Virus record (IMG/VR): IMGVR_UViG_2919155634_000002
Coordinates: 4,411-68,410 of that record
DNA: 64,000 nt
DNA from: a virus
Reading direction: 5' to 3' (one strand)
The notes under the pieces are model-generated. The model worked only from the letters and a program-made list of their open reading frames with translations, did no database searches and had not been told where the DNA came from. A program made the position numbers and the translations under genes. Every line of letters starts with the position of its first letter. Position 1 is the first letter of the stretch. This document shows positions 14,778 through 41,167 of this stretch, piece by piece.

Positions 14778-15202
14778 CTGCGTTGGCCATGCGCACGTTC
14801 AAGCCACGCAAGCCACGCGCCAAGCCCGTCGACAGGGAAGGGCAGGAGCAGGCAGCGCTGATGCAGGAGCTGCAGCTGCGTTATCCGCAGGTGTTCAAAC
14901 TGATCTATCACGTTCCGAACGGGGGGCACCGAGTGAAGGCGGTGGCTGGCAAGCTCAAGGCCCAGGGCGTCAAAGCAGGCGTGCCCGATCTTGTCCTCCC
15001 AATGGCCCGCGGTGGCTGGTTCGGCTTGTATATCGAATTCAAAGCTTTGCCGCCGTTCGATGCTGATATCTCACCCAGTCAGCACGCTTATATCGAGGCT
15101 CTAACCCAACAGGGCTACCTGGCGATTGTGTGCCGGGGCCGTATTGATGCCGTTGAAGCGATACGTGCCTACCTCCTGCAGCCTGCGACGGTGGCAGCAT
15201 GA
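14774..15202 (+). CDS. VRR-NUC domain nuclease
   Basis: HVPNGG...GVKAGVPDL...IEFK...Q PD-(D/E)xK pattern. Confidence 0.85.
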   Translation: MTALAMRTFKPRKPRAKPVDREGQEQAALMQELQLRYPQVFKLIYHVPNGGHRVKAVAGKLKAQGVKAGVPDLVLPMARGGWFGLYIEFKALPPFDADISPSQHAYIEALTQQGYLAIVCRGRIDAVEAIRAYLLQPATVAA

Positions 15203-21203: not shown

Positions 21204-21308
21204 GGGGTAGGGGGGTCAAAAGCTAGGGATTCTCATCTAGCTAGACCGCTCCCGACCCCACGTACAGATTTTTTTCCCTCACAGGATTTTTGTTAAATGG
21301 CTTTAACA
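21204..21308 (+). other. Putative helper cos (packaging) site
   Basis: Between HNH genes and terS; G-rich GGGGGGTCAAAAG leader; 37-bp block 21241-21277 repeated exactly at 30291-30327. Confidence 0.7.
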
Positions 21309-21842: not shown

Positions 21843-22120
21843 TGGAATGGTCAACCGCCTGCCATGATTGGGAACAGCGCATCGTTGCCCGCCAGAGCCT
21901 GATTCCGTTTGAGCCGCTGTTCCCGACTGAGGCTGAGGAAGCCTTGGATGTGTTCGGGGCGTTGCGCATGGTGGACGCCACTGGCAGTCCGTTGATGTGC
22001 GAGACCGTGCGTGATTGGGTCAATCAGTTCGTGGCCGCGATCTTCGGGGCCTACGACTCAGATTCAGGCCGGCGCCTGGTCAGCGAGTTCATGCTGCTCA
22101 TCAGCAAAAAGAATTCATAA
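21839..22120 (+). pseudogene. terL: Terminase large subunit, 5' fragment (interrupted at Walker A by the satellite)
   Basis: Ends ...[11 protein letters not shown]-stop exactly at attL. Confidence 0.92.
22104..22113 (+). repeat. attL core (GCAAAAAGAA)
   Basis: One mismatch to 36241-36250; tandem GGGGGTAT arm-type repeats at 22253-22272 and inverted ATACCCCC at 22303-22310. Confidence 0.8.
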
Positions 22121-22348: not shown

Positions 22349-23536
22349 ATGAAATTGACAGACACGAAGCTACGCCACATTAGGCCCAACGGAAAGCGCC
22401 TCAAGCTCGCCGACGGGAGAGGCCTGTATCTACTCATTACTCCAAACGGGGGGCGCTACTGGCGCTGGAAATACCGCTACGAAGGTCGCGAAAAACTTAT
22501 GGCCCTGGGGGTCTATCCGGAGATCTCCCTCGCTGCAGCTCGTAACCTGCACAGAGACGCCAGACTGGTACTGGCAAATGGTTCAGACCCAGTTGCAGCA
22601 AGGCAAAGGGCACAGGAAAAGGTTAGTGCGTATGTAACGTTCGAGCAGGCAGCCAAGCTCTGGTTTGCTCATTGGGCGCCGCAGAAAAAAGGCGACTCCC
22701 CTAAGGCTGCGTGGGCACGATTGGAAAAGGACGTACTTCCGGAGATCGGACGAAAGCCTGTCGGGAACATCCCGCCATCCGTGTTTCGTGACCTGCTCAA
22801 GCGTATCGAGGATCGGGCTCCCACAATTTCGCGCGCGGTCTTCAGCTACTGTGGTCAGATAATGCGATATGCAGTTGCACACGACCTAGCTGATCGCAAT
22901 CCAGTAGCCGAATTGCAAAGCGGAGATTTTCTCCGGGAGCACAAGTCTCGGAACCATGCTCGCGTTGATGAGAGAAAACTCCCAGCCTTGCTGCATGCAA
23001 TAGAAGGATTTCCTAGCGAGGTGACCAGCCTGGCAATGCGGCTGTTATGTCTCACTTTTGTCAGGGTTGGGGAGCTGCTTGGCGCGACGTGGGAAGAGTT
23101 TGACCTAGTTGCCTGTAGATGGACCATACCCGCTGAACGGATGAAGATGGATTCAGAGCACATCGTGCCTCTGTCCAAACAAGCTATCGAGATTGTAGAA
23201 CGGCTCAAGCAAATCACCTATGGAGGGAATTATCTGTTCCCAGGTAGGGCAGGCCATGATACTACAATGAATAGAGCAACAATCTTGATGGCGTTACGAA
23301 GCATGGGCTATGCAAAAGTTATGACTTCTCACGGTTTTCGAGGCATTGCGTCAACAATACTGCACGAGCAAGGATATAATCACGAGCACATCGAAACTCA
23401 ACTTGCTCATCAGTCTAGAGGGAAGGTTAGTGCAGCTTACAATCATGCCCTGTATCTTACGCCGCGTGCGAAAATGATGCAGGATTGGTCTGATTTTATT
23501 GATGTTAAAAGGGCTAGCTATAAACATCCGATTTAA
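22349..23536 (+). CDS. int: P4-like tyrosine integrase with arm-binding domain
   Basis: KLADGRGLYL...WRWKYRY arm domain; FVRVGE, HGFR, LAH, AAY catalytic motifs intact. Confidence 0.95.
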   Translation: MKLTDTKLRHIRPNGKRLKLADGRGLYLLITPNGGRYWRWKYRYEGREKLMALGVYPEISLAAARNLHRDARLVLANGSDPVAARQRAQEKVSAYVTFEQAAKLWFAHWAPQKKGDSPKAAWARLEKDVLPEIGRKPVGNIPPSVFRDLLKRIEDRAPTISRAVFSYCGQIMRYAVAHDLADRNPVAELQSGDFLREHKSRNHARVDERKLPALLHAIEGFPSEVTSLAMRLLCLTFVRVGELLGATWEEFDLVACRWTIPAERMKMDSEHIVPLSKQAIEIVERLKQITYGGNYLFPGRAGHDTTMNRATILMALRSMGYAKVMTSHGFRGIASTILHEQGYNHEHIETQLAHQSRGKVSAAYNHALYLTPRAKMMQDWSDFIDVKRASYKHPI

Positions 23537-23592: not shown

Positions 23593-23775
23593 ATGGCGAC
23601 GCTTCTGAAATTGGAACAAGTCAAGCAGAAAACTGGATTAAGTAAAACTGCGATTTACACCTGTCCCGACTTCCCTCAGCCAGTCAAAATTGGCGCGCGT
23701 TCGGTGGCCTGGGTGGAGAACGAAGTTTCTGACTGGATAGATAGGAAAATTGCAGAGCGCGGGCGCAGTCAGTGA
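23593..23775 (+). CDS. alpA: AlpA family regulator / excisionase
   Basis: LLKLEQVKQKTGLSKTAIY...FPQPVKIGARSVAWVENEVSDWI. Confidence 0.92.
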   Translation: MATLLKLEQVKQKTGLSKTAIYTCPDFPQPVKIGARSVAWVENEVSDWIDRKIAERGRSQ

Positions 23776-24083
23776 TGCGCCCCCTAGATACCAAGGATGC
23801 TCGCCTGCCCAGTTGTGCCCTTTCTCTTCAGTCGTGCCCATGCCCCAAGGTGGGCATTACTGAGGGCACGAGGGCACGACTGAGGAAAAACAGTTCAGGA
23901 GTGGCATTGCGCCATCACGATAAACTGCTGATAATCGGTCTTGCAAGCAATCGTCTCGAAGGGTATCGTTTGCCCGTCGCTGCAAATTCAGCGACCGGGT
24001 TTGGCGACTCGAAGACTACACGGCGCACAGGCGCCCCCATCACGATTGCTGGCGCTTTTTTTGTGCCCGCACATCCTGTTTAT

Positions 24084-24649: not shown

Positions 24650-24948
24650 GCTTGATAAGTTGGAACGGCCTTCTTCCCAAGCATGAGGCAATCAAAGAAA
24701 TGTCGGTCGATGAGCTTCGTAAAACTGCCGACTCAACGAAGGAATACGCCTGCACACTGGCGCACGGTATATCTGGCATAGGCAATTTGCTTGCGTGTAC
24801 TGCCTCGAATGGCGAAACCGGTTTGAGCGATCAAGCCGTGACTAGCGTCGGCTGGATGCTTGAAAGCATGGGTACGCTCATCAGCAACTTAGTCGATACA
24901 CAAGCAGCTGCCGAGTACCACCTGCAAGTCAAACTCCCGAGGGCTTGA
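24646..24948 (+). CDS. Hypothetical satellite protein
   Basis: GGAGG RBS, ATGA overlap. Confidence 0.65.
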   Translation: MSLISWNGLLPKHEAIKEMSVDELRKTADSTKEYACTLAHGISGIGNLLACTASNGETGLSDQAVTSVGWMLESMGTLISNLVDTQAAAEYHLQVKLPRA

Positions 24949-24950
24949 TT

Positions 24951-25358
24951 ATGAGAATCCAAAACGGTGCATTTGCGCCGACGGGATCGGTTTGCCTGGA
25001 TAAACTGCTCAACCGGTTAGAAAAAGTTAAGTCCGCTGGCGCCGACAAGTGGAAAGCCTGCTGCCCTGCACACGACGACAAACATCCGAGCTTGGCAATT
25101 AGCGAAACTTCGGAGGGCGTCGTCTTACTCAAGTGCTGGGCCGGTTGTACAACTAAAGAGATTGTCTCGGTAATTGGCCTGGAGTTGCGGGACTTATTCC
25201 CCGGCGACAAACAACCTCGGCGCGGCCCAAGTAAGGCTGCAGTTGAACATGAGCGCATGGTTTATCGGATCGGCCAATCACTCCAGCAGCAAGGTAGTTT
25301 GGCCGGTGACGACCTAGTGCGCTTCAACCTCGCCAAGCAGCGCCTGGGGGTCAAATGA
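24951..25358 (+). CDS. Primase-type Zn-binding domain protein
   Basis: CCPAHDDKHPSL...LKCWAGC (CHC2-like). Confidence 0.8.
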   Translation: MRIQNGAFAPTGSVCLDKLLNRLEKVKSAGADKWKACCPAHDDKHPSLAISETSEGVVLLKCWAGCTTKEIVSVIGLELRDLFPGDKQPRRGPSKAAVEHERMVYRIGQSLQQQGSLAGDDLVRFNLAKQRLGVK

Positions 25359-26629
25359 CGACTGACCGATTTGCCGGAGAATGGACCGAACCACTCAGCC
25401 CAATCAATCGAGAAAACGTCACGCCCTTGTGGCGCGTCAATGCAGTTAAGGCGTCGACAATCAGAGCCGTTCCCATCCGTTGGCTGTGGCCTGGCTGGCT
25501 GGCCAAAGGAAAGCTGCACATCCTCGCCGGTGCTGGCGGCACTGGGAAAACCACGCTGCTGATTGGCCTGATCGCCACCATCACTACTGGCGGCCGCTGG
25601 CCTGATGGCAGCCATTGCAGTGAGCCAGGCAATGCACTGATCTGGTCGAGCGAAGATGATCCTGCCGATACCTTGATCCCCCGCTTGACCGCGGCTGGCG
25701 CTGACATGAGCCGGGTGTACATCATCCAAGGGCGGACTAACGCCCAGGGCGACACAGACCCATTCGACCCGGCCAACGACATTGGTCTGCTGCGAAAAAC
25801 AGCCAGCGACATTGGCGGCGTCTCACTGCTGATGCTCGATCCCATCGTCAGCGCTGTGAAGGGTGACATGCACAAGGCCAATGACGTGCGCCGGGCGCTG
25901 CAGGCCGTGGTGGATTTTGCGGAGCAGAACCTTTGCGCAGTAGTGGGAATTTCCCACTTCGCCAAAGGCGGCGCAGGGTCATCACCTGCTGATCGGGTCA
26001 TTGGGTCGCAGGCGTTCTCCGCATTGGCACGCACGGTGATGGTGGCTGCTAAGCAGGAAGACTCGGCCACCCGCGTACTGGCGCGTGCGAAGTCCAACAT
26101 CGGTACTGATGAAGGGGGCGTTTCCTACACCATCGAGCCACTCACCATTGAGGGAGACATTGAGGCTACCCGTGTTCTGTGGGGGGATTTGATTCAGGGT
26201 TCAGCCCGCGAAATCCTGGGTGATTTGGAAGGCCAAGAAGATGGGATGCGGCTGGATGACTCGGATGATCCGGCTGAAGCCTTGCGTAGGATTCTCAGCA
26301 AGGGCCCGCTGCCAGGCAAAGAAGCAAAGTGTCTGATGGTCGGCAATGGCTACACCCAAAAACAGATTCGTACAGCACGAGAGCGTCTTGCGATCACTAC
26401 CGCTCGATCCGGCTTTGGAGGGGACACGGTTGTCACATGGTCCCTCCCTCAGGCCGAAGGTGACTATGCCCCATTCCCCTCAGTCGAGCCCTCTGATCCT
26501 CAGTCGTGCCCACCCTTGGGCATGGGCACGACTGGAGACATAGGGCACGACTGGACGAAATACCTCAGTGGGCCACTGCCAGACGGAACGTCACTCCCAT
26601 CACTGGATGATGATGCGGAGGACCTGTGA
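25355..26629 (+). CDS. AAA (RepA/RecA-like) replicative helicase
   Basis: Walker A GAGGTGKT, SEDD, Walker B LLMLDPI, SHFAK. Confidence 0.88.
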   Translation: MTTDRFAGEWTEPLSPINRENVTPLWRVNAVKASTIRAVPIRWLWPGWLAKGKLHILAGAGGTGKTTLLIGLIATITTGGRWPDGSHCSEPGNALIWSSEDDPADTLIPRLTAAGADMSRVYIIQGRTNAQGDTDPFDPANDIGLLRKTASDIGGVSLLMLDPIVSAVKGDMHKANDVRRALQAVVDFAEQNLCAVVGISHFAKGGAGSSPADRVIGSQAFSALARTVMVAAKQEDSATRVLARAKSNIGTDEGGVSYTIEPLTIEGDIEATRVLWGDLIQGSAREILGDLEGQEDGMRLDDSDDPAEALRRILSKGPLPGKEAKCLMVGNGYTQKQIRTARERLAITTARSGFGGDTVVTWSLPQAEGDYAPFPSVEPSDPQSCPPLGMGTTGDIGHDWTKYLSGPLPDGTSLPSLDDDAEDL

Positions 26630-26922: not shown

Positions 26923-26981
26923 AGGCCAACCGCGAGCCAAATTACCGTCGGTAAACCGACACAGATAGCAGGCGGTCACGG

Positions 26982-27021
26982 CTCGGATTTGTTTCCGACC
27001 TGGCTCGGATTTATTTCCGAG
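26982..27021. repeat. Two helper-type iterons (TCGGA-N6-TCCGA) in the satellite
   Basis: CTCGGATTTGTTTCCGAC (26982-26999) and CTCGGATTTATTTCCGAG (27004-27021); 26999-27020 is the exact reverse complement of helper 13016-13037. Confidence 0.85.
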
Positions 27022-27157
27022 GGGGTGCTTTCCGGCAGAAAACCACACCTTGGCTTTCACAACGCAGAGGCGCCTTGATCCGAATCGGCTCATTTGGTCC
27101 GAGTCGGCTCATAGGGTCTCGTTCGGTGTAACGACACCCTCACATTGAGGAGCAAGC

Positions 27158-28447
27158 ATGACCACCAAGCACATCATCATCACTGACGCCGAGATCCGTA
27201 AGCAGGCCGGCCAGCCAGTGCGCCAGTTGCGTGACCCGCGTTACCCCGAACTGCGCTTTCGCTATTCGAGCGTGGATCGCACCCGGGGCGCCTGGCACGT
27301 TGTTGTCAGGGGCAAGTGGGGCAAGGCCGGCGATTTCCCCAGCCTGACCACCAAGGCCATGATAACTGCGCTGCCGGCCATCCTGGCCCGCCGTGCCGTA
27401 GACGCCGAGGCTACCTCGCTGACCAGCACCTGGAGTCGTACCGGTGAGCTGCTGGACTGGTACCTGGACCGCATGCTGCGCGACCGCAACTTGTCGGAGA
27501 AGCGCAAGGCCGGCGCGAAGTCGGCCATCACCTGCCACCTGACGCCCCGGCTGCATGACCTGCCGCTGGCTGATGTGAGCAAAGCCACGCTCGATCAACG
27601 CCTAATGTGGCCACTGCAGGAGCGCTACGCCTTATCGTTCGTGCGGCTGGTGTTCAACGTGCTGGCGGTGGCCGTGCGCAAGGCACACCGGCTTGGGATG
27701 ATCGAGCACAACCCCATGGGCTCGCTGCGCTTCGGGGACTTCGTGGCGGTACGGATCAAGCCTAAATCGTCACGGCTACGGGAGCGGGATTTACCCGATC
27801 TGCTGGCCAAGCTGGCGAGCTGGAGCGAGGCGCGGCCCGGTGACGCCCTGTTGGCGCTGATGATGCTTTGCCACGGCACCCGCCTGGGCGAGACGCGCAG
27901 TGCGCTGTGGCGCAATGTCGATCTGCAGGCCGGCCAGTGGTTCATACCCGCCGACGACACCAAGACCAAGCAGAACCACACCCTGCCGCTGACCCGCCAG
28001 GCCTGTGCACTGCTGAGCCGCTATCAGGCCCAGCAGATCGCCCAAGGCTACCAAGGTGCCTACCTGTTCCCATCCAGCCGGCGCGGGCCACTGGGTGCCA
28101 CGGCAGCCAGCCAAGTGTTTGCCGAATTGAGCGACCGGCAGTGGACCAGCCACGACGTGCGCAAGGTCGCCCGCACCTGCTGGATGGATCTGGGTGTTGA
28201 TTACCTGGTGGGCGAGATGCTGGTGAACCACGCCCTGCGCAACATGGACGCGACCTACATCCACACCACCGCCGAAGCCCTCAAGCGCCAAGCCCTGGAA
28301 CGCTGGCACGACCAGTTAGACCGACTCGGGTTGAACGCACTTACAGGCGAGACATACCCAAGACACGAAGTTTCGCAAAAACAGCCACAAGCCACAGACC
28401 ACGCGGCCTCTGGCGAAAACCCGGATGCATCACAGAGGAGCATGTAA
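27158..28447 (+). CDS. Second tyrosine recombinase, paralog of helper 15199-16497
   Basis: Shared LRDPRYP, HGTR(I/L)GETR, WFIPA, WTSHD(L/V)RKV, GEML(L/V)NH, TYIHT motifs. Confidence 0.88.
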   Translation: MTTKHIIITDAEIRKQAGQPVRQLRDPRYPELRFRYSSVDRTRGAWHVVVRGKWGKAGDFPSLTTKAMITALPAILARRAVDAEATSLTSTWSRTGELLDWYLDRMLRDRNLSEKRKAGAKSAITCHLTPRLHDLPLADVSKATLDQRLMWPLQERYALSFVRLVFNVLAVAVRKAHRLGMIEHNPMGSLRFGDFVAVRIKPKSSRLRERDLPDLLAKLASWSEARPGDALLALMMLCHGTRLGETRSALWRNVDLQAGQWFIPADDTKTKQNHTLPLTRQACALLSRYQAQQIAQGYQGAYLFPSSRRGPLGATAASQVFAELSDRQWTSHDVRKVARTCWMDLGVDYLVGEMLVNHALRNMDATYIHTTAEALKRQALERWHDQLDRLGLNALTGETYPRHEVSQKQPQATDHAASGENPDASQRSM

Positions 28448-28450
28448 ATC

Positions 28451-28681
28451 ATGGTCGACGTTGAGCAGGACGTTACCCAGCGCTTGGCCCAGGCCGGCGT
28501 CACACCGCTAATCGGTGGCCTGGTGCCAGAGCCAGCAACGGCGGACCTGCTGGGTTATGCACCCAGCTACTTGCGCCGCCTGGCTGCTGAGGGGCGTTCA
28601 CCCCTGCCGTTCGTGCGCCGGGGCAACCGCAGGTTCTACAAAATAGCCGACATAGTGCGCTTTGCGACGGATACCGACTGA
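28451..28681 (+). CDS. Small winged-HTH (excisionase/MerR-like) DNA-binding protein
   Basis: TADLLGYAPSYLRRL...RRGNRRFYKIADI. Confidence 0.75.
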   Translation: MVDVEQDVTQRLAQAGVTPLIGGLVPEPATADLLGYAPSYLRRLAAEGRSPLPFVRRGNRRFYKIADIVRFATDTD

Positions 28682-28762
28682 GGACGTCGAAGTTAACCGC
28701 TGACCGGGGGGTGCGTGCGCGCATAGGGTAGACGGCATCGTTTACACACCCCGGAGAACCCC

Positions 28763-29929
28763 ATGCCAGATCCCTATCAGCAGGACATGACCCAGCTGAA
28801 TCAAACGCTGCAGAACATCGGTACGCAGATCGCTGACTTCAAATCCTCCTCTGCAGAGAAACAAACCGAGTTCGGCGCCCGCCTTCAAGAAATCGAGCAG
28901 AAGATGGTGAATGTCAGCGCCCGTCGAGGCGCGAATGATGACACCGCCGACTCCAATGTCGTGACCGCCCAGGTAGTGGCCGCTGATGGTATCGCCGGTT
29001 TCCGCAACGGGATGAAGTCCACCGGCCAGATCAGTTGCAAGGTCGGCGTGCGTGCTGCGATCACCAATCCCAATAAAGGCGTCACTGGCTCGACCAGCTA
29101 CCCAACTGCCCCGCAACGTGATGGCGCCGGCATCCGCGGCATTCCGCAGCCACGGCTGAGCTTGCTGGATGTGCTGCCGATCGTGCCGGTCACCAGCGCT
29201 ACTTACGAGTTCGTTCGCCTCGACGGCTACATCAACGGCGCGGCCTACCAGAAAGAAGAAGGTGAGCAGAAGGCCGAAGGGTCGATGCCGACCAAGATGG
29301 AGCGAGCGGAGATTGCCACCATCGCCACCTGGATTCCGGCGAGCCTCCAGGTGTTGCAGGACAGTGACCAGCTTGAGGGGCAGATCAACACGCTGATGAG
29401 CGTGGGGGTTCGCCAGAAGCTGGAGGCCGAGCTCATCAACGGCGAAGGTGGACCAGGTGAGATCCTCGGATTCAAGAAGCAGGCCACCGCCGCCGGCATC
29501 ACCACCGGCAAGCCAGCTGATCGCATCGGCGCTGCCCTCACTGACCTCAAGGCCGAAGGTTGGAACCCGAACGTTATCGTGATGAACCCGCGTGACTGGT
29601 TCGCCATCGAGAGCGAGCGCGCCGAGGGCGGCGACGGTCAGTACGTTATCGGCACACCACGCGATCCAGCACCACCAAGCCTGTGGGGCACACCCGTGGT
29701 GGTCACCAACGGTATGCCACAAGGCGAAGCGTTGATCCTGGACACCTCTGTGGCAGCCCTGCTGGATCGGCAGGAGGTGACCGTGGAAGCAAGCCGTCAC
29801 GATGGCGACAACTTCAAACGCAACCTGGTCACCATTCTGGCGGAGCTGCGTGCCGGCCTGGCCGTCTTCGCGCCAAGCGCTACCCGCCTGGTAACGCTCG
29901 GTACCGTCCAGGCCAAGTCGTCCAAGTAA
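28763..29929 (+). CDS. Satellite-encoded HK97-family major capsid protein
   Basis: N-terminal coiled-coil delta domain; RLSLLDVLP, IATWIPAS, IVMNPRDW, LWGTPVVVT, FKRNLVTILAELR motifs. Confidence 0.92.
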   Translation: MPDPYQQDMTQLNQTLQNIGTQIADFKSSSAEKQTEFGARLQEIEQKMVNVSARRGANDDTADSNVVTAQVVAADGIAGFRNGMKSTGQISCKVGVRAAITNPNKGVTGSTSYPTAPQRDGAGIRGIPQPRLSLLDVLPIVPVTSATYEFVRLDGYINGAAYQKEEGEQKAEGSMPTKMERAEIATIATWIPASLQVLQDSDQLEGQINTLMSVGVRQKLEAELINGEGGPGEILGFKKQATAAGITTGKPADRIGAALTDLKAEGWNPNVIVMNPRDWFAIESERAEGGDGQYVIGTPRDPAPPSLWGTPVVVTNGMPQGEALILDTSVAALLDRQEVTVEASRHDGDNFKRNLVTILAELRAGLAVFAPSATRLVTLGTVQAKSSK

Positions 29930-30059
29930 TGCTTGGCGTGGGTCAGCTGCGAGTGCCACGGACCCAATAACCGCAGCAGTCGGAGCCCCATTTCATCCTT
30001 TCAAGGTGATCCGACACTGGCCCGCCATGCGGGCCTTTCTATTCACTCTGGAGAAGATC

Positions 30060-30257
30060 ATGCGCCATACCCACTTACCCAAGCCTGTTCAACGAGCCCT
30101 CAACCAAATCGCCCACAGTCGCGCCCTGTTGCGCCAGATGGAGGAGCGTGAGCGATTGAGCAAAGAGATCGATCGGCTGCTGGCCAGCGGCCTGAGCGCA
30201 GCAGAAGCGCTCGAGCAGATCCGATCGGCGCCGCCGTACGAAGCCCCGGACTACTGA
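30060..30257 (+). CDS. Small helical protein immediately upstream of the satellite cos
   Basis: GGAG RBS; MRHTHLPKPVQRALNQIAH... Confidence 0.7.
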   Translation: MRHTHLPKPVQRALNQIAHSRALLRQMEERERLSKEIDRLLASGLSAAEALEQIRSAPPYEAPDY

Positions 30258-30480
30258 GGGGCGGGTCGAAAGTCTAGGAGGTCCGCTGCCCTAGACCGCT
30301 CCCGACCCCACGTACAGATTTTTTTCCTTTAACAAAAAAATGTTAAAGCGACTTTAACACCCATGCCGAACGTGCATGAGCCTGGAAGCCAGTGATTCAG
30401 CGGCTTTGAGCCAAATTGAGACAGCCTGGCGGATGTTAAAAGTGTTAACCCTTTAACACCTAAAAGTTAATGCTTTAACA
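30257..30480 (+). other. Putative satellite cos site with TGTTAAA/TTTAACA repeats
   Basis: 37-bp identity to helper (30291-30327); six exact heptamers at 30328, 30341, 30353, 30434, 30452, 30474. Confidence 0.8.
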
Positions 30481-30578: not shown

Positions 30579-30668
30579 ATGTTCAGTGCGATCACTTGCA
30601 CCCTCGTCGCCGAGATCTGCAAGGCCGGCTTCTGTTGTGAAACCTCCAATAATCGGAGTTGCCGATGA
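30579..30668 (+). CDS. Possible 29-aa Cys-rich leader peptide
   Basis: GAGG RBS; MFSAITCTLVAEICKAGFCCETSNNRSCR; ATGA overlap with the first gpI-like gene. Confidence 0.35.
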   Translation: MFSAITCTLVAEICKAGFCCETSNNRSCR

Positions 30669-31255
30669 AACGAAAGATCAAGCTCTACGGCGTGCTGCGC
30701 CAGCGTTTCGGCCGCCAATACATCCTCGATGTGCACACCCCGCGGGATGCCATCCAAGCGCTCTGCGAAATGGTTCCAGGCTTCGAGAAGTTCCTGCTCA
30801 CTGGGGAGGAGCGCGGCTTGGTGTTCACCGTCTTTTCCGGTAACCGGAATCTCTGCGCCGACGATCTGGATCTCAAGGGCGACGATGTGGGTGATATCCG
30901 AATAGCGCCGATCATCCAGGGCAGTAAGCAGGCAGGCGTGTTTCAGACGATCCTGGGCGCGGTTTTGATCGTCGTGGGCATCATGTACGACTGGACAGGA
31001 TCGACCTCGACCATGGGCGTGGCGATGATCGCCGGCGGTGCTGCTATGGCCGCCTCGGGCGTTGTACAGATGCTTTCACCTACGCCTAACACGGGCAGCC
31101 TGGACCGCAACGAGGACGGCAACAACCCCAGTTACGGATTCGGCGGTGCGGTGACCACCATCGCTCAGGGCAACCCCTATCCAGTGCTGTACGGCGAGCG
31201 AGAGATCGGTGGCGCCGTCGAATCTGGCGGCATCTACACACAAGATCAGCTGTAG
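30665..31255 (+). CDS. Tail assembly protein I (lambda gpI-like), copy A
   Basis: IKLYGVLRQRFGR ubiquitin-like N-terminus, IRIAPIIQGSK, Gly-rich hydrophobic stretch, SYGFGG...GNPYPVLYGEREIGG. Confidence 0.88.
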   Translation: MKRKIKLYGVLRQRFGRQYILDVHTPRDAIQALCEMVPGFEKFLLTGEERGLVFTVFSGNRNLCADDLDLKGDDVGDIRIAPIIQGSKQAGVFQTILGAVLIVVGIMYDWTGSTSTMGVAMIAGGAAMAASGVVQMLSPTPNTGSLDRNEDGNNPSYGFGGAVTTIAQGNPYPVLYGEREIGGAVESGGIYTQDQL

Positions 31256-31266
31256 AGGAGGCATAC

Positions 31267-31629
31267 ATGACCACCGAAATTTCGAAGTCATCCTTTCAGC
31301 AGCGATTCGCTCAAGCATGCAAATCGGAGCATTTCACTCTGCATGAGGGCGGCCCCTCTTATTCGCTTTGGAACGTCCAGCACGTAAAGGACGGTCGCCA
31401 CGCACTCCTTGACGGCGTTTTTTTCACAGAGGAGGAGGCGCAGATCTCCGCCGATCTTCTCCGAGGCACCATGCGTGGGGCGCGAGCATACAAGGTCATC
31501 TATGCCCCTACATGGAGGCCCGACCCGGCCCGAGAGGCCGTTATACGCCTTGAGGCGTTCCAGTGCCGCGAGATGCTTGCACGGCGCCTGGGCGTACAAC
31601 ATATAACCCGCGAACAGGAGAATTCCTGA
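31267..31629 (+). CDS. Hypothetical protein between the two gpI-like genes
   Basis: GAGGAGG RBS; TGATG coupling to the next gene. Confidence 0.7.
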   Translation: MTTEISKSSFQQRFAQACKSEHFTLHEGGPSYSLWNVQHVKDGRHALLDGVFFTEEEAQISADLLRGTMRGARAYKVIYAPTWRPDPAREAVIRLEAFQCREMLARRLGVQHITREQENS

Positions 31630-32243
31630 TGGCTGCAGTCGTTCGAAGCAATCCGACCCTGACCACCGTCTACCTGTCCGGCCCCCTGATCCGGAAGTTT
31701 TTCCGCAAGAAGGATTACCTGCTGGACAGCCAGAATACCTGGGAGGTGTTTCGAGCCTTGAAGGCAACGCTGGCAGGATTCGAGCAAGAGATTAAGCGCC
31801 TCGAGGCCATGGGCATGAGGTTTGCGATATTCCGCAATCGAAAGAATGTGGGAGAAGACGACTTCGAGCGCGGCGGCGCCACTGAGGTACGTATTGTTCC
31901 TGTGATTGGAGGCAGCAAGCGCGGTGGGGGCTTGCAAACAGTCCTAGGGGTAGTGCTCATCGCTCTCGCGTACTTCAACCCGTTTGGGTACTTCTCAGGG
32001 CCGGCTGTTAGCGCTATGTACGCCGCAGGCGCGGCGAACGTAGCTGGCGGCGTGATGCAGATGCTAAGCCCGCAGGCACGCGGCTTGTCGCAGAGCGGTG
32101 CACCGGAGAACCTGCCGTCCTACGCCTTCGGTAGCGCCAAGAACACCACCGCCAGCGGTAACCCCGTCCCGATCTGCATAGGTGACCGCCGCTGGGGCGG
32201 AGCTATCATCTCGGCATCGATCGAGGCGCAGGACAAGGCTTAA
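31629..32243 (+). CDS. Tail assembly protein I (lambda gpI-like), copy B
   Basis: TVYLSGPLIRKF, VRIVPVIGGSK, SYAFGSAKNT...GNPVPICIGDRRWGG. Confidence 0.88.
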   Translation: MAAVVRSNPTLTTVYLSGPLIRKFFRKKDYLLDSQNTWEVFRALKATLAGFEQEIKRLEAMGMRFAIFRNRKNVGEDDFERGGATEVRIVPVIGGSKRGGGLQTVLGVVLIALAYFNPFGYFSGPAVSAMYAAGAANVAGGVMQMLSPQARGLSQSGAPENLPSYAFGSAKNTTASGNPVPICIGDRRWGGAIISASIEAQDKA

Positions 32244-32669: not shown

Positions 32670-34298
32670 TCAAAGATTATATCGCCATGATTTACTCAAT
32701 CCTTTAATTCCCGGAAGATTTAGAAAAGGTGAGGGCGTACTGTCGTATATTACGTCATGCTTACCTATGCGCTTGGTTGTGTGCACAAGAACGCAGAGAT
32801 TTTTGGCTCTTGTTATGCCAACATAGTGTAGATTTAGATCTTGCTCCCAACTTTTATAGATCTTTTTGCTAGTGATGGGGTCGTTGCTTGGGAAGTTCAT
32901 TACATACTCGATAAGGTCGAGGTGGAGAACAATTTCAAATTCTAAACCCTTGGATTTATGGAGCGTCATGCATTGTACTTCGTTATGGCTTGCAGGCAGA
33001 TACTGCTGTAATTGCTCTTTATCTAGAATAACCTTTTTTAGTGCGGCAATCTCTTCAGGTTTAGCTTCTAAGCCAAGCAGTCTTTGTGAGGCAGTGACCA
33101 AGCTCGATTCTAAAAGGCAATCATCAATGGCTCGAAATTTTTTAATGATAGATCTTCTGTCGATTAATTGTCGTTTTTTCAAGTCACCATGATCGGGAAG
33201 TATTTCTAAGACCTCATCAACGGTGTGTGCAGGACTGTAGCGGTAAGTTAGGATCTGCCCCCAGAGCTCTGTCGTACGTGTCCCTAGTTCCTCAATAGCA
33301 TTATCAGTATGGATTCGCCTTGGGATAGTCAGCTTCTCAGCAAGATGCTTGAGTGTTGCGTTGCCCCTGGCCAGGATAGCGATTTGGGATGGTGGGATCG
33401 TGCTCCATTTTGCTAGCAGAGCTTCTATTAGCCTGTTGAGTTTGAACGCTCCTTCGCGTTGATCGCCTTCCATTTCACAGTGCCATACTCGAATGTCATT
33501 GTTTTCGAGGAGGATAAATCGATCATTGAAAAGTCTGTTTGCATAATTTGAAATGGACGGGTGACATCTATGGTTTCGAGCAATCGTTCGATGCGTGAAT
33601 TTTGGATTTCTAATCAGATCTTTGAGGTGTTCAGGGCTTGATCCTCTCCACCCAAATATCGATTGCTGCAGGTCACCGACTGCTATGCCGGTTATTCCCA
33701 GTGATTCCATGATCAAAAAAAGCGAGTGCTGTTCGTAAGAAGTGTCTTGATATTCATCCATATACACTGAGGTGTATCTGGCTTTGAGGAATTTTGAACA
33801 AGCGGCTGATTGCTTAATGATATAGTTAGCTAGGCTTGCTATTGCTGGAAAGTATAACGTTCCAGCTGCAAGGAGCTCTAAGAGTACATCGAGGTTCTGT
33901 CCCTCAGTGTAGCTCTCTTCTTCTATGAACTGGCAGGCAAGTTTTTTCTCAGCCTCAGTCAGGTCGGCAGGATATTTAGGAGTTAGGTCTACTGCTGAAC
34001 TAGCGAATACATGCCTAATGAACGGATGGATGATTTCACTCAGACAAAATGAATCTATCGTCCCAAAAAAGCTAGACTTTACATCAGTTGAATTTTTTTT
34101 GCATCTGTCAGCTAGTTCTCTGCTTGCCTTTCTGGTGAAGGTTATGGCTATGACACCCTGATGCTTCTTAAGAGTGTCTAGCTCAATTCTGATCTTCTCA
34201 CTCATAACTGCTGTTTTACCACTTCCAGGGCACGCAGTTATGATCAAGGAGCCTTGCGGCTTGATCGCATCTAACTGTTCGTTAGTGAACTCTATCAT
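32670..34298 (-). CDS. gajB: UvrD/Rep-like helicase, Gabija GajB
   Basis: ACPGSGKT, ITFTRKA, DEYQD, VGDLQQSIFGWRG, TLHKSKGLEF, YVGITRAK; coupled to the OLD nuclease. Confidence 0.83.
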   Translation of the reverse strand: MIEFTNEQLDAIKPQGSLIITACPGSGKTAVMSEKIRIELDTLKKHQGVIAITFTRKASRELADRCKKNSTDVKSSFFGTIDSFCLSEIIHPFIRHVFASSAVDLTPKYPADLTEAEKKLACQFIEEESYTEGQNLDVLLELLAAGTLYFPAIASLANYIIKQSAACSKFLKARYTSVYMDEYQDTSYEQHSLFLIMESLGITGIAVGDLQQSIFGWRGSSPEHLKDLIRNPKFTHRTIARNHRCHPSISNYANRLFNDRFILLENNDIRVWHCEMEGDQREGAFKLNRLIEALLAKWSTIPPSQIAILARGNATLKHLAEKLTIPRRIHTDNAIEELGTRTTELWGQILTYRYSPAHTVDEVLEILPDHGDLKKRQLIDRRSIIKKFRAIDDCLLESSLVTASQRLLGLEAKPEEIAALKKVILDKEQLQQYLPASHNEVQCMTLHKSKGLEFEIVLHLDLIEYVMNFPSNDPITSKKIYKSWEQDLNLHYVGITRAKNLCVLVHTTKRIGKHDVIYDSTPSPFLNLPGIKGLSKSWRYNL

Positions 34299-36007
34299 AC
34301 ACTACCCTCGGCTACTTCGCGGCTATGGATCAGCGGTTGAGCCAAGAAGCCGCCACCAATTTTACCTAGAGCCTGACTATGCTTGGCTAAAAAAGAGCGC
34401 ATGCGTATGGCTTTGCTGTTTTGTAGGTAGGTAATCGCTTCAGCTATTGTTGTCTTATTGCTAAAGATTAGGAGCTCAGGACTTAATTCGTCGCCCATAT
34501 CATTTTCGAGATCGATCTTAGATAAATACACGCCCTTAGGATTTAGGATATCACAAGCAGCCTTCCAATAACCGTCTCTATGAACGGTGCTATGATCAGA
34601 GTTTTCAGGAAGATGTGGTACAGGCGGCAAATTAACCAGATTGCGTCCTCTATTTATGCCTGCGAGTTGTTTGTATTTAACATTTTTAAGTTCAATGGAT
34701 GATACGTCGTTGTCTGTCTTGGCGATCCAGGATATTTCCATGGCATCTAAGATTTTTGTGTAAACTGAAAACTGTACACCGTCAACGCTAAGAATTGATA
34801 TGTTGTAATAGTCTAAATCTATTCCAAGTTGTTTGGATAACTCGTTATAGAACAAAACTTCTGATGGTCCTTCAACCAGTAGCACGCATTTGGCAAAGAA
34901 AGCCTCTGCAGGTAGGACGCTCATTCGATAGCCTAAGTTGTCCCAGTGCTCGGAGATACATTCTGAACAGCCTTGGCTTGCCGCGTAACTTCCGTGGTTG
35001 GACTTTTTGATGTGTACCAAGTCAGCGGGAGTAAAACGCGCGGTTATTTGGGGCGAGTGTGTGGTAATGATGGTTTGCCCGCTAAGATCCTCAATTAGAT
35101 AGTTTGCTAATCTACGTTGCTGGTGGGGGTGCAGGTGAGCTTCCGGTTCTTCGATGCAGTAAAAAACAACTTCACTCGCCGGATCGTGCTCGTACTGGCT
35201 ACGAGCCTTCCATAGTGCCATCAAAATCTGATTATTGCGACCATCCCCACCAAGTGAAATCTTGGCCCCTGCCGTGCTTGCGCTGAGCTTCAAGTTGTCA
35301 ATAAATTGCTGTGTTTGTATTGCACCCGAATCTAGGAATACAGAGTACCCGGTTAGGTCGTTGGAAAGCTTGCTGAGCTCTGTGTTTACTGCTGTTGTTG
35401 CATTTGCAACATAGTTTAGCTGGCGGACTTGCTCATTGATGATATTTAGATTGGTTTCGATTTTTTCGAGCTGTTTTTGATCGAATTCACCTTGTTCTGG
35501 TGTCCGCAATTCTTGCGAGAGTTTCAATAGATGTTTTTTTTCAAGTGATACAAATTTTTCTAGATCACGACTCGATTTTACATACTTAAGATTTAAATAC
35601 TTGAGATAGAACCTGCTGGATATTTCATTTAGTTGGTCGGCTTTAGGGCCGCATAAGATCCTATAGCTCAAGTCCTTTCTGAGGGCTTCATATCTAAGTA
35701 TGCATTTGCCATCCCCCGATACGTTGCCGCGGAGGATTGAAAGTACTGCATCCTGGCTTACCTCTCCGAAGTGAATGGTAATGCACAGGGCCTCACTTTG
35801 CTGGCCATCATTTGAAATATGAAAGTCGGACTCTTTTGGTTCGATTTCACTTTCGGATAAAGACTTATCTAGGAGCAACCTTAGCGCATAGATCAAGTTT
35901 GTCTTGCCGCAGTCGTTGCTTCCAATGACTAAGGTTTTTTGGTTGAAATTGACTATGGCATTCTTGTAATTTTTGTATCCGCTGACTTCTAGCTTGTCGA
36001 TTTTCAT
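34295..36007 (-). CDS. gajA: OLD-family ABC-ATPase/TOPRIM nuclease, Gabija GajA
   Basis: IGSNDCGKT, EEPEAHLHPHQQ, VEGPSE, KTDND; AT-rich. Confidence 0.85.
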   Translation of the reverse strand: MKIDKLEVSGYKNYKNAIVNFNQKTLVIGSNDCGKTNLIYALRLLLDKSLSESEIEPKESDFHISNDGQQSEALCITIHFGEVSQDAVLSILRGNVSGDGKCILRYEALRKDLSYRILCGPKADQLNEISSRFYLKYLNLKYVKSSRDLEKFVSLEKKHLLKLSQELRTPEQGEFDQKQLEKIETNLNIINEQVRQLNYVANATTAVNTELSKLSNDLTGYSVFLDSGAIQTQQFIDNLKLSASTAGAKISLGGDGRNNQILMALWKARSQYEHDPASEVVFYCIEEPEAHLHPHQQRRLANYLIEDLSGQTIITTHSPQITARFTPADLVHIKKSNHGSYAASQGCSECISEHWDNLGYRMSVLPAEAFFAKCVLLVEGPSEVLFYNELSKQLGIDLDYYNISILSVDGVQFSVYTKILDAMEISWIAKTDNDVSSIELKNVKYKQLAGINRGRNLVNLPPVPHLPENSDHSTVHRDGYWKAACDILNPKGVYLSKIDLENDMGDELSPELLIFSNKTTIAEAITYLQNSKAIRMRSFLAKHSQALGKIGGGFLAQPLIHSREVAEGSV

Positions 36008-36240: not shown

Positions 36241-36250
36241 GCAAGAAGAA
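36241..36250 (+). repeat. attR core (GCAAGAAGAA)
   Basis: Junction to terL codons K-K-N-G-K-S-T; tandem (A/G)GGGGTA arm-type repeats at 36158-36177. Confidence 0.8.
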
Positions 36251-37664: not shown

Positions 37665-37822
37665 ACGCATTTCACTATTTCATCATCTGCGCCGTGTGCG
37701 GGTTCGGCCTGGCCTGCGCGGGTGTCTGGATGCTGGCAGGCACCGGCTGGGCGATGCTCGCCGGCTCCGGCAGCCTCTTCTGCATCGCAGCCTTCATCCG
37801 CCGAGGGCTGAGCAGTGATTAA
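37661..37822 (+). CDS. Small 2-TM protein between terL and portal
   Basis: Hand-translated MNAFHYFIICAVCGFGLACAGVWMLAG...; ATGA overlap. Confidence 0.6.
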   Translation: MNAFHYFIICAVCGFGLACAGVWMLAGTGWAMLAGSGSLFCIAAFIRRGLSSD

Positions 37823-39116
37823 AACCCTTTCTCAAGCGCTTGGTAGCGCTGCGGCTAAGCCCTCGGCAAGCATGAGCGGCTGGCTGGGCAAGAGCATCCG
37901 GTTGTCGGACGGCGGGTTCTGGAGCGCCTTTTCCGGCGCCCAGTCCAGCAGCGGCAAGTCGGTCACGGTCGACAAAGCCATGCGGCTGTCGGCGGTCTGG
38001 GCCTGCGTGCGCATCATCTCCACTTCGGTGGCCGGCCTGCCGCTCAGTATCTACCGGCGTCTGCCGGACGGTGGACGCGAGACGGCGCGGGACTTCCCGC
38101 TGTACGACGTCGTGCACAACAGCCCGAACGAGGACATGGCCGCGTTCCATTTCTGGCAGTCGGTCGTCGCTTCGATGCTGCTGTGGGGCAATGCCTACTG
38201 CGAGATTCATCGGGCCGCCGGGCGGGTCATCGCACTGGACTTCCTGATGCCGTCACGGGTCACCCCGGAGCCGGATGACGATGGTCGGCTGCGCTATTTT
38301 TTTCAGCCGCGCAAGGGCGCGCGCCGGGAGATCGCCCGGGAAGACATGCTCCACATCCCGGCCTTCACCTTGGATGGCCGGATGGGCCTCTCGGCAATTC
38401 GTTACGGCGCCGATGTATTCGGCTCGGCCATGTCGGCCGACGATGCTGCCAATACCACCTTCAAGAACGGGATGATGCCCACCGTAGCTTTCTCGGTGGA
38501 TAAGACGCTCAACCCCACGCAGCGTGCCGAATTTCGAGACTACGTCAAGACGATTTCTGGCGCGCTCAATGCGGGTAAGAGCCCGGTACTCGAGCAAGGC
38601 GTGAAGCCCGAGATGATCGGCATTAACCCGGCTGACGCCCAGCTGCTCGAGTCACGTGGGCACAGCATCGAGGAGATCTGCCGTTGGTTCGGCGTGCCGC
38701 CCTGGATGGTGATGAAAACTGACAAAGGCAGTAACTGGGGCACCGGCCTTGAGCAACAGCAAATCGCGTTCCTGACCTATTGCATCATGACCTACACGGC
38801 GCCAATCGAGCAGTGCGTGAACAAGCGATGCCTGACAGCGGTTGACCGGATCAAGCACTACGCGGAGTTTTCGCTGGAAGCCTTCCTGCGCGCTGACAGT
38901 GCCGGCCGTGCCGCCTACCTCAGCACCATGGGCCAAAACGGCTACATGACCCGAAACGAGGGTCGACACAAAGAGAACCTGCCCAGCATGCCTGGCGGCG
39001 ACATCCTCACCGTGCAATCGAACCTGGTACCGCTTGACCAGCTGGGCAAACAAAACGACAGCCAAGCCGCGCGCGCGGCGCTGATGAACTGGCTCCAAAG
39101 CAAATCCGGGGAGTAA
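37815..39116 (+). CDS. Portal protein (HK97 family)
   Basis: AVWACVRII, LLWGNAY, G.SAI, EEICRWFGVPP, MTRNEGR. Confidence 0.93.
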   Translation: MIKTLSQALGSAAAKPSASMSGWLGKSIRLSDGGFWSAFSGAQSSSGKSVTVDKAMRLSAVWACVRIISTSVAGLPLSIYRRLPDGGRETARDFPLYDVVHNSPNEDMAAFHFWQSVVASMLLWGNAYCEIHRAAGRVIALDFLMPSRVTPEPDDDGRLRYFFQPRKGARREIAREDMLHIPAFTLDGRMGLSAIRYGADVFGSAMSADDAANTTFKNGMMPTVAFSVDKTLNPTQRAEFRDYVKTISGALNAGKSPVLEQGVKPEMIGINPADAQLLESRGHSIEEICRWFGVPPWMVMKTDKGSNWGTGLEQQQIAFLTYCIMTYTAPIEQCVNKRCLTAVDRIKHYAEFSLEAFLRADSAGRAAYLSTMGQNGYMTRNEGRHKENLPSMPGGDILTVQSNLVPLDQLGKQNDSQAARAALMNWLQSKSGE

Positions 39117-39119
39117 CCC

Positions 39120-39977
39120 ATGAAACACAAGATCCAGTCTCGCGGCCTGCGCAGCGAGATGAGCCCGCGTGCGCTCGATGAATGGAACCCAGCCATTCAG
39201 GCGGCCGTGGAAAACACCTCGGAAACCATCACCATCTACGGTGTGATCGGTGAGGACTGGTACGGGGAGGGCGTGACCCTCAAGCGTATCGACGCAGCGC
39301 TGCGTGCCATCGGCGACCGTGAGGTGACGGTGTACATCAACTCACCAGGTGGCGACATGTTCGAAGGCATCGCTATTTACAACCGCCTGCGCGAGCACAA
39401 GCAGAAGGTCACCACCAAGGTGCTCGGCATGGCTGCCAGCGCAGCGTCCGTCATCTACTTGGCTGGCTCCGAGCGCCAGGTGGCCAGCAGCGCTTTCCTG
39501 ATGATCCACAACTGCTGGACTTTCCTCTCCGGCAACCGCCACTACCTGCGAGACGTATCGGACGACATGGAGGAGTTCGATGCCGCCATGGCCGACCTCT
39601 ACGCCGAGACCAGCGGCCAGCCCGTCGAGGACATGGCCGAGCTGATGGATGACGAGACGTTCATCCGGGGCAAGCGAGCGGTGGAACTGGGTCTGGCCAC
39701 TGGCCTGCTGGCAGCGACCGAAGTCACCGAGCGCGAGACTGAGGAAACTGGCCAGGCCAATGCTCTGAAGGCCATGGACGCCGCCCTAGCTAAGGCCGGC
39801 ATGCCGCGCTCCGAGCGCCGCGAACTCTTCGCCACTTTCAAGTCTGGCATGCCACGCGCTGCCAGCGGGAACACGCCGCGCGCTGTTCCGACCGGCACGC
39901 CAAGCGCTGCCGCGCCAGACCTCTCCGCCTCACTGAGCGCGGCAACCAATCTTCTCAATTCTCTGAAAGGAAAGTGA
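39120..39977 (+). CDS. ClpP-like prohead protease
   Basis: YINSPGGDMFEG, GMAASAAS, LMIHN. Confidence 0.9.
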   Translation: MKHKIQSRGLRSEMSPRALDEWNPAIQAAVENTSETITIYGVIGEDWYGEGVTLKRIDAALRAIGDREVTVYINSPGGDMFEGIAIYNRLREHKQKVTTKVLGMAASAASVIYLAGSERQVASSAFLMIHNCWTFLSGNRHYLRDVSDDMEEFDAAMADLYAETSGQPVEDMAELMDDETFIRGKRAVELGLATGLLAATEVTERETEETGQANALKAMDAALAKAGMPRSERRELFATFKSGMPRAASGNTPRAVPTGTPSAAAPDLSASLSAATNLLNSLKGK

Positions 39978-41167
39978 CCATGGACTACGAAGCCCAAGTC
40001 AAGGAATTCAATGCCACCCTCAAGGGCATTGGCGATCAGATCAAGGCCCAGGCCGAAGCCACCGAAAAGCAGATCAAGGCGTCCGGCGAAATGAACGCCG
40101 AAACCCGCACCAAGGTTGACGAGTTGCTGACCAAGCAAGGCGAAGTGTCGGCACGCTTGCAGGAAGCCGAGCAGAAGCTGGTCAACGCCAGCCGCGCGCC
40201 CGCAGACCGCCAGGAGCAGCAGCTCTCGGTTGGCGCTCTGGTCGTAGGCAGCGAAGAAATGAAGGGTCTGAGCTCGTCCTTCCGTGGTTCTCGTCGTGTG
40301 TCGGTACCGCGTGCCGCCATCACTACAGCCACTGGCGGCGCTCTGACCGCTGCGGATCGCCAGCCTGGCATCATCGCCCCGCCTCAGCGTCGTCTCACCA
40401 TCCGCGACCTGGTGGCGCCAGGTACCACTGAAGCCAACTCCATCGAGTACGTGCGTGAAAGCGGCTTCACGAACAATGCAAAGCCTGTCGCTGAGACCCT
40501 GGCCAAGCCCTATTCGGACATCAAGTTCGAATTGGCCACGGCCAACGTGCGCACCATCGCGCACCTGTTCAAGGCCAGTCGCCAGATGCTCGACGATGCC
40601 CAGGCGCTGCAGAGCTACATCGACGCGCGCGCCCGTTACGGCCTGCTGATGGCCGAGGAGGCCCAACTGCTGTACGGCAACGGTACCGGTGCCAACCTGC
40701 AAGGCCTCATGACGGTTGCCCAGCTTTACGCGGCTCCCACCGGCGTGACTGTAACGGGCGAGCAGCGTATCGATCGCCTGCGCCTGGCACTGCTGCAGGC
40801 CGAGCTGGCCGAGTTCCCCTCGGATGGCATCGTGCTCAATCCCATCGACTGGGCGGCGATCGAGCTCACCAAAGATGGTGAAGGCCGCTACATCATCGGT
40901 GAGCCCCAAGACGGCACCACTCCGCGCCTGTGGAATCGCCCGGTCGTCTCGACTCAGGCCATGACGCAGGATGACTTCCTCGTCGGCGCTTTCAAGCTGG
41001 GCGCACAGATCTTCGATCGTATGGAAATCGAAGTGCTGATCTCGACCGAGAACGCCGATGACTTCGAGAAGAACATGGCGACGATCCGCGCCGAGGAGCG
41101 CCTGGCCTTCGCCATCTACCGTGGCGAGGCGTTCGTGACCGGCCCACTGACCGGCAGCGGCTCGTAA
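39974..41167 (+). CDS. Helper major capsid protein (HK97 family)
   Basis: RRLTIRDLV, IAHLFKASRQML, IVLNPIDW, LWNRPVV, FEKNMATIRAEERL. Confidence 0.95.
   Translation: MTMDYEAQVKEFNATLKGIGDQIKAQAEATEKQIKASGEMNAETRTKVDELLTKQGEVSARLQEAEQKLVNASRAPADRQEQQLSVGALVVGSEEMKGLSSSFRGSRRVSVPRAAITTATGGALTAADRQPGIIAPPQRRLTIRDLVAPGTTEANSIEYVRESGFTNNAKPVAETLAKPYSDIKFELATANVRTIAHLFKASRQMLDDAQALQSYIDARARYGLLMAEEAQLLYGNGTGANLQGLMTVAQLYAAPTGVTVTGEQRIDRLRLALLQAELAEFPSDGIVLNPIDWAAIELTKDGEGRYIIGEPQDGTTPRLWNRPVVSTQAMTQDDFLVGAFKLGAQIFDRMEIEVLISTENADDFEKNMATIRAEERLAFAIYRGEAFVTGPLTGSGS

Follow-up and report, generated by a model that had tools for sequence, protein, structure and literature searches.

A lone HK97-type capsid gene in a Pseudomonas phage satellite embedded in its D3-like helper: a satellite-specific lineage and its possible role in head-size redirection

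What does a head gene do in an element that encodes no other part of a head? Among the late genes of Gram-negative PICIs, the capsid gene is the one most often present; 21 of 29 reference elements have it, it is reported not to be needed for transfer, and SatelliteFinder counts "capsid morphogenesis" among its core markers, as a function "thought to" modify capsids (PMC10085698). Redirection of capsid size by a capsid homolog has been proven in Staphylococcus, for Ccm of SaPIbov5. The 64,000 nucleotides of viral DNA analyzed here (the window) contain a satellite with a capsid gene at 28763-29929, for which an initial annotation had proposed a similar strategy. The best explanation of this gene appears to be that its product is a working head protein of a satellite-specific capsid lineage, from which we infer head size and assembly as discussed below.

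Organization of the satellite

The satellite comprises 14,137 bp between two att cores and is inserted in the terL gene of the helper. The cores are 10 bp long and near-identical, and joining them in silico gives a 562-aa TerL with the Walker A motif whole. The following features were assigned (positions in the window).

~22104 (22104..22113), + strand: attL core GCAAAAAGAA, located within the Walker A codons of the helper terL gene
22349..23536, + strand: satellite integrase of the Arm-DNA-bind_3 type
23593..23775, + strand: AlpA regulator (PF05930, E 1e-15)
23963-24062, + strand: a1/b1 target/isrK of the C4 RNA, above the Rfam gathering score
24078-24164, + strand: C4 antisense immunity RNA (82.9 bits, above the Rfam gathering score)
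24945-25358, + strand: primase Zn-finger gene of the replication module (profile match)
25355-26629, + strand: AAA_25 helicase gene of the replication module, which spans 24945..26629 (profile match)
27158..28447, + strand: second tyrosine recombinase, opening the gene run that ends with the capsid gene
28451..28681, + strand: 76-aa HTH_17 protein directly upstream of the capsid gene, 75-100% conserved beside it
28763..29929, + strand: satellite HK97-type capsid precursor, 388 aa (PF05065, phrog_10, fold match)
29937..29981, + strand: conserved pseudoknot-like RNA just past the capsid stop codon
30019..30045, + strand: intrinsic-terminator-like hairpin at the end of the capsid transcript (consensus match only)
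30060..30257, + strand: 65-aa helical protein of no known family, between the capsid gene and cos
30291..30327, + strand: 37-bp exact copy of the putative cos region of the helper (21241-21277)
30659..32243, + strand: pair of lambda-gpI-like genes for tail assembly, with a 120-aa gene of no assigned function between them
32670..36007, - strand: Gabija defence cargo (GajA 34295-36007, GajB 32670-34298)
~36241 (36241..36250), + strand: attR core GCAAGAAGAA; joining with attL removes 14,137 bp

A standard layout of Gram-negative PICIs has been described (PMC10111431). In the element studied here, integrase and att sites lie within 10-20 kb, alpA follows int, the C4/isrK RNA is present, and a unidirectional core with primase/replicase genes is combined with a helper cos copy without full virion or lysis genes; judged by its sequence, the satellite is a Gram-negative PICI. 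It resembles PICIs with a lone capsid gene, such as EcCICFT073 and PmCI172, in the order int-alpA-C4 RNA-primase/helicase-late zone in one orientation, in the helper cos copy without terS, in its defence cargo and in its size class of 10-20 kb. It differs from these two in its Pseudomonas host, in a crosslinking HK97/D3-type capsid without a decoration gene, and in the extra recombinase, the 65-aa gene and the gpI-like genes. A lone capsid gene is a catalogued trait of Gram-negative PICIs; specific to the present case is a satellite-only capsid lineage.

Like the helper-embedded PICIs (HE-PICIs; Tommasini 2023, PMC10111431), the satellite is inserted co-oriented in the helper late gene terL, which is restored on excision, shows short att identity, and has both its capsid gene and its cos within the late zone. 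However, its site lies in the Walker A codons, at about position 30 of PF03354, whereas the terL sites given in the available part of PMC10111431 are 132 and 245/246. The doubled TGTATTGC attP motif of HE-PICIs is absent near the satellite att sites, where GGGGGTA repeats are located, and Pseudomonas is not found in the accessible portions of the text and supplements of PMC10111431. Since insertion site and attP motif differ from those of the published HE-PICI clade, helper-embedding may have arisen independently of it. The same insertion in the terL Walker A codons is present in Pseudomonas capeferrum WCS358 (locus L003, L003:3395-17172), while most relatives are inserted at tRNA genes and have other integrases.

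The initial annotation had described the capsid gene as the only head gene between the att sites, and this description holds: portal, protease, TerL, TerS and head-tail genes were not found there. The sole portal detected in a profile search of the contig is that of the helper, profile searches gave no match to Peptidase_S78 or Terminase_4 inside the satellite, and helper head genes used as tblastn queries retrieved nothing meaningful from it. The 76-aa HTH protein (28451-28681) shows a weak TerS-like match (phrog_57, E 0.0014) along with excisionase matches, and an excisionase-type HTH accounts for the former equally well. The recombinase at 27158-28447 shares 48% identity with a helper gene at 15199-16497. 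The 37-bp copy is identical in 37 of 37 positions to its helper source, which is located between the HNH and terS genes; it is a putative cos, named from this position, and the relatives have related cos copies past their capsid genes. The 65-aa protein (30060-30257) is a candidate packaging or assembly accessory; most members of the clade retain it, to a limit of about 51% capsid identity.

Some further elements of the region deserve mention. A pair of 77-nt inverted repeats (23809-23885 and 26478-26554, 83% complementary), each arm of which is also hairpin-like, flanks the regulatory and replication genes, and the origin-like iterons of the helper (12916-13058) have an inverted copy in the satellite at 26980-27025. 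The region after cos contains either a terS homolog (L012, L014, L015, L016) or the 120-aa gene with gpI-like gene(s) (L001-L009, L011, and the window at 30659-32243), never both among the loci seen, and a tape-measure-like gene takes this place in L010, L026 and L034. The pseudoknot-like RNA (29937-29981) is present at 18 lone-capsid loci (besides the window, L001-L004, L006-L009, L017-L020, L023-L025, L033 and L035) and at none of the portal-linked loci; compensatory changes occur in both stems, from two distant loci only, and its score against Rfam Proteo-phage-1 (RF03044), 29 bits, is under the gathering score of 42.

The resident helper

Three head genes of the helper are relevant to the comparison.

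37815-39116, + strand: helper portal
39120-39977, + strand: helper ClpP-type maturation protease
39974-41167, + strand: helper major capsid protein, 68% identical to the D3 capsid

The helper genome, previously put at "at least about 47 kb", can be refined to about 55.5 kb, with the contig start as its left end and a probable right end marked by an integrase arm-like motif at C1:69471. The head of D3 has T=9 geometry and its genome 56.4 kb; the helper head is probably isometric T=9 as well. To the right of the window, a low-GC gene for 896 aa with a restriction-endonuclease-like N-terminus and a P-loop is located at the right end of the helper (G000:C1:66548-69238), followed by remnants of related prophage integrase and accessory genes (G000:C1:69600-76297, L114).

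The capsid gene, its fold and its selection

The frame at 28763-29929 is intact and begins with ATG preceded by GGAGA, and its 388-aa product matches PF05065 (E 2e-37, profile search) and phrog_10. An AlphaFold model (89 sequences, pLDDT 69) has the HK97, phiXacJX1 and D3 capsids as its best structural matches. In this model, an N-terminal helix of residues 4-54 is followed by helix-helix-strand elements (66-92) and the HK97 core; the predicted arrangement of helix and helix-helix-strand matches the layout of a delta/scaffold domain, bearing out the earlier description of a complete capsid ORF with a delta domain. A 405-aa ORF on the opposite strand (28742-29959) was interpreted as a shadow ORF of the capsid gene.

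Satellite and helper capsids share 31% identity (BLASTP), so that the divergence from the helper capsid (39974-41167) noted at the outset is confirmed. The dN/dS values of 0.06-0.17 against nine relatives indicate that the gene is under purifying selection; constraint is weakest in the scaffold and strongest in the A-domain and P-loop. As crosslink residues and cleavage motif (see below) are kept, selection is purifying and a cos copy adjoins, the capsid looks functional yet dependent on protease, portal and terminase of the helper.

A satellite-specific capsid lineage

Sixteen genome loci and four viral loci with the satellite capsid were found, and the capsid gene is alone in all of them, in the order recombinase, HTH, capsid, 65-aa gene, cos. 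Every locus examined, with capsids 36-100% identical, is a lone capsid in an integrase element of 8.5-14.3 kb without portal or protease. The distant homologs (36-60% identity) are likewise lone genes in small int-alpA or int-HTH elements, with hosts that include Pseudomonas, Pseudohongiella and Stenotrophomonas. Among 50,697 records searched, no capsid of a cultured phage exceeded about 32% identity to the satellite capsid. In a tree of 70 sequences (quick search, SH-aLRT support, midpoint root, from which donor and direction cannot be read), a branch with 98% support separates lone from portal-linked capsids. Among the loci seen and on these sequence data, the satellite capsid is in a deep clade confined to satellites. 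A literature search retrieved no paper describing a lone-capsid Pseudomonas clade.

A recent capture of the gene from the helper was rejected on the basis of the 31% identity and the separate clade. That it is a decaying, recently captured phage gene without function is scarcely tenable. One pseudogene is known among the 16 genome loci, that of Pseudomonas sp. 2835 (L009, L009:10001-11160), with an internal stop near codon 150, but the dN/dS of 0.06-0.17, crosslink residues that are invariant in 116 homologs, and a deep satellite-only clade for which no close phage donor was found largely refute decay. The element of L009, the only one with a capsid pseudogene, is otherwise of normal size.

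Within the clade, two capsid alleles (78% identity to the capsid of the window in L006-L009 and L020, 95-97% in L001-L004) occur in flanks that are 91-100% identical. The differences between the allele of L006-L009/L020 and that of the window and L001-L004 cluster in scaffold, E-loop and spine, a pattern that suggests allele swapping, possibly by helper type.

Crosslinking, processing and subunit contacts

In an alignment to HK97, the crosslink residues K169 and N356 and the catalytic E363 correspond to K170, N354 and E361 of the satellite capsid, and these are invariant in 116 of 116 homologs. D3 and HK97 crosslink via the same positions (PMC12749128). The motif RAAIT (satellite residues 97-101) is common to the helper capsid and aligns with the end of the 113-residue scaffold of D3; because of this shared motif and its position, processing by the helper protease is plausible. 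The satellite capsid thus resembles those of D3 and HK97 in fold, scaffold layout, crosslink positions and position of scaffold cleavage (PMC12749128). It differs from them in its identity of only about 31%, in an A-domain entry loop that is about 6 residues shorter, in a coil about 20 residues shorter than that of the D3-type helper, and in several charged residues that are replaced by hydrophobic ones.

Among the latter, E153 and R210 of HK97 are replaced by L153 and L211. The pair reportedly forms a salt bridge between neighbours within a capsomer, as Hasek et al. are said to have described in 2017. The equivalents of R135, E219 and E364 are hydrophobic, too. Positions 153/210 are hydrophobic at 35 lone loci and E/R at 58 portal-linked loci, with no crossover, a split that is not independent evidence since the change is a single evolutionary event; E/R is found in 116 of 116 helper-like proteins. 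In the structure of Ccm, the contact of the E-loop on the spine helix is made within the capsomer, and capsomers are unmixed (PMC8569155). The hydrophobic pair, together with this geometry, suggests that satellite subunits pair with one another and not with helper subunits; being one evolutionary event among several clade-specific changes, the exchange is a lead, not a proof.

The P-loop region is identical to HK97 in 14 of 23 positions and to the helper in 10 of 23, and two of the three hinge residues of D3 are missing from it. The P-loop accordingly read leans toward three-fold contacts among satellite subunits. It is also what could speak for a protein that serves only another class of helper, with an HK97-type P-loop and a lambda-like tail tip, and has no part to play with the resident prophage: in this region the satellite capsid is nearer to HK97 than to the resident helper, the satellite bears lambda-gpI-like genes, and most relatives, residing at tRNA genes, meet many helpers. 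Such a restriction is nevertheless very improbable, as the cos copy matches the resident helper in 37 of 37 positions, satellite and helper cos in L003 share their own variant base, and the cleavage motif is that of the resident capsid.

A cleavage motif that is shared, combined with altered subunit contacts and a P-loop unlike that of the helper (10/23, as compared to 14/23 for HK97), would also suit a protein that spoils head assembly of the helper or of invading HK97-like phages, either through co-assembly that yields dead shells or through titration of portal and protease, while satellite particles are not smaller. Lone-capsid elements bear defence cargo (Gabija) as well. We consider an interference role of this kind doubtful: a poison need not retain the invariant crosslink triad, the satellite relies on the same heads, and the capsid gene is not the interference factor in EcCICFT073.

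The satellite scaffold consists of 99 aa with a coil of about 51 residues, as compared to 113-114 aa and about 69 residues in the helper; the satellite coil was read from the satellite model, and the helper coil from the N-terminal helix, the only part used of a helper model that is poor past the coil (pLDDT 38). Head size goes along with coil length across HK97, D3 and T5, and the delta domain of Ccm is shorter than that of the CP (PMC8569155). One subgroup of the lineage has an N-terminus 30 residues longer at unchanged genome size. A general rule that a short scaffold means a small head was rejected, because long-scaffold subclades have the same genome size.

Genome size and head size

The att-to-att length of 17 elements in the close clade is 13.35-14.30 kb, although their integrases and cargo have been exchanged. 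On either side of the capsid gene, arm length differs among the elements by about 0.8 kb, and the two arms are anticorrelated (r = -0.93, n = 14; permutation p ~1e-5, the significance being overstated since the elements are related). Because the arms compensate each other although the cargo is mostly unrelated among the 14 elements analyzed, element length is, to judge from these sequences, constrained.

By geometric estimate, a T=4 head of the HK97 fold holds about 15-16 kb, and the T=4 head of EcCIEDL933 packs 15.5 kb (10.1101/2022.09.08.507074, 10.1101/2025.02.11.637232). Four copies of the satellite amount to 56.5 kb (4 x 14,137), and those of the size range 13.35-14.3 kb to 53-57 kb, compared with about 49-59 kb for complete D3-like genomes. 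The 14.1-kb genome therefore fits a T=4 head, and its tetramer fits a D3-like head equally. The earlier proposal of a small head that excludes the helper is supported in so far as the T=4 fit has its 15.5-kb precedent; the 56.5-kb tetramer would fit the helper head too, and genome size alone was rejected as proof of small heads. In distant subclades (L023, L025, L026, L028, L031, L034), the elements are 8.5-10.3 kb long, roughly two thirds the length of the 13.8-kb class. These sizes are close to a T=3 estimate of 9-10 kb, but a quarter of a T=7 genome would be of similar length; a second head-size class is possible.

Head size may consequently be unchanged, with a satellite tetramer packaged via the cos copy in normal T=9 heads, as for EcCICFT073 in lambda heads, and with a capsid protein that mixes into or replaces full-size shells, or matters with some helpers only. 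The tetramer of 56.5 kb is close to the helper (about 55.5 kb) and to D3 (56.4 kb), EcCICFT073 sets a precedent, PICI capsid genes are reported to be dispensable for transfer, and the narrow size range suits a fixed multimer equally. This arrangement is possible, albeit rather unlikely; it leaves unexplained why a satellite-specific lineage keeps crosslink and cleavage residues under strong selection, and why the scaffold is shorter in most members.

Proposed formation of small heads

We weighed the unchanged head against redirection to a small head by the satellite capsid, which could act as pentons only or form the whole shell. Taking both modes together, the prospects of redirection appear evenly balanced, and no other explanation weighed here ranks higher. 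In its favour we count the satellite-only clade, the dN/dS values, crosslinks, cleavage motif, the 153/210 pair, the shorter scaffold and the constant size, as well as PmCI172, which carries a capsid homolog and makes small heads (PMC6092414). On the other side are the tetramer-compatible size, the long-N-terminus subclades of the same size, the stop codon in L009, and EcCICFT073: this element, the one E. coli PICI tested (capsid gene c1499), formed no small heads (Fillol-Salom 2018, PMC6092414), packages phage-length DNA, and retained interference when the gene was deleted (PMC6092414). The redirection strategy first proposed thus keeps the support of conserved residues, selection and size, and is weakened by the packaging of EcCICFT073 in full-size heads despite its capsid gene.

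The gene, its lineage and selection, the residues, the cos copy and the size constancy are established directly, and from them we infer assembly steps and head size. Upon helper induction, the satellite would excise, restoring terL, and then replicate and express its late genes. The satellite capsid precursor would self-assemble into capsomers that dock on the helper portal; the helper protease would remove the satellite scaffold at the shared RAAIT motif, and the K170-N354 crosslink would form with E361 as catalytic residue. The product would be a small head, probably T=4, into which the helper terminase would load one 14.1-kb genome from the copied cos, the 55-kb helper genome being too large.

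Ccm of SaPIbov5 is reported to occupy the pentons in T=4 heads, being unable to close a shell by itself (Hawkins 2021, PMC8569155), and to convert a prolate head that has T=4 caps to isometric form (Carpena 2016, PMC5052747; PMC8569155). The two proteins have in common that they are lone HK97-fold homologs of low identity to the helper capsid (24% for Ccm, 31% here), with a cleavable delta domain shorter than that of the helper, in cos satellites that rely on the helper terminase. In contrast to the Ccm system, the helper is here probably isometric T=9 and not prolate, the crosslink residues are kept, and satellite and helper share the same cleavage motif, whereas the sites of Ccm and CP differ. 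A PDB sequence search returned only the HK97, D3 and phiXacJX1 capsids, so that kinship with Ccm beyond the fold was not found, and the Ccm chain is absent from the top 50 structure matches of the satellite capsid model. Membership in the Ccm family was rejected, sequence kinship not having been found. The analogy drawn in the initial annotation consequently applies to the lone HK97-fold homolog, the delta domain and the cos satellite, and is loose with respect to head geometry and the satellite's own three-fold contact loop. Because the helper is probably isometric T=9 and this loop is HK97-like, a whole satellite shell is as plausible as pentons of the Ccm type; between the two modes the chances are about equal, with the whole shell slightly favoured.

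With cf-PICIs such as EcCIEDL933, the satellite shares a satellite-specific HK97-like capsid clade and a similar genome size. EcCIEDL933 builds its T=4 head from the satellite capsid protein alone, as the present element may do; the EcCIEDL933 shell is not crosslinked, whereas the present capsid keeps the crosslink residues. The portal, protease, TerS, TerL and head-tail genes of cf-PICIs are absent here, and identity as a cf-PICI was rejected since the packaging module is lacking. A more specific proposal, which we regard as possible but somewhat unlikely, is that a widespread, satellite-only crosslinking lineage has rewired its subunit contact, keeps apart from helper subunits and makes a T=4 shell of its own, for which only portal, protease, terminase and tail are borrowed.

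Significance

The case is well testable, as helper and satellite lie side by side and the helper capsid shares 68% identity with its counterpart in D3, a phage for which prohead and head structures are available and whose heads can be assembled in E. coli from cloned genes. The comparison singles out residues 153/211, the RAAIT site and K170/N354. If small heads are formed, size piracy by capsid homologs would be known from Gram-negative bacteria and from covalently crosslinked shells as well, and insight would be gained into how the T number is set in HK97-fold proteins. If the satellite indeed builds its own shell, the lineage would stand midway from Ccm-type remodelling to capsid-forming PICIs, and this would be the first function assigned to the capsid gene of a Gram-negative PICI.
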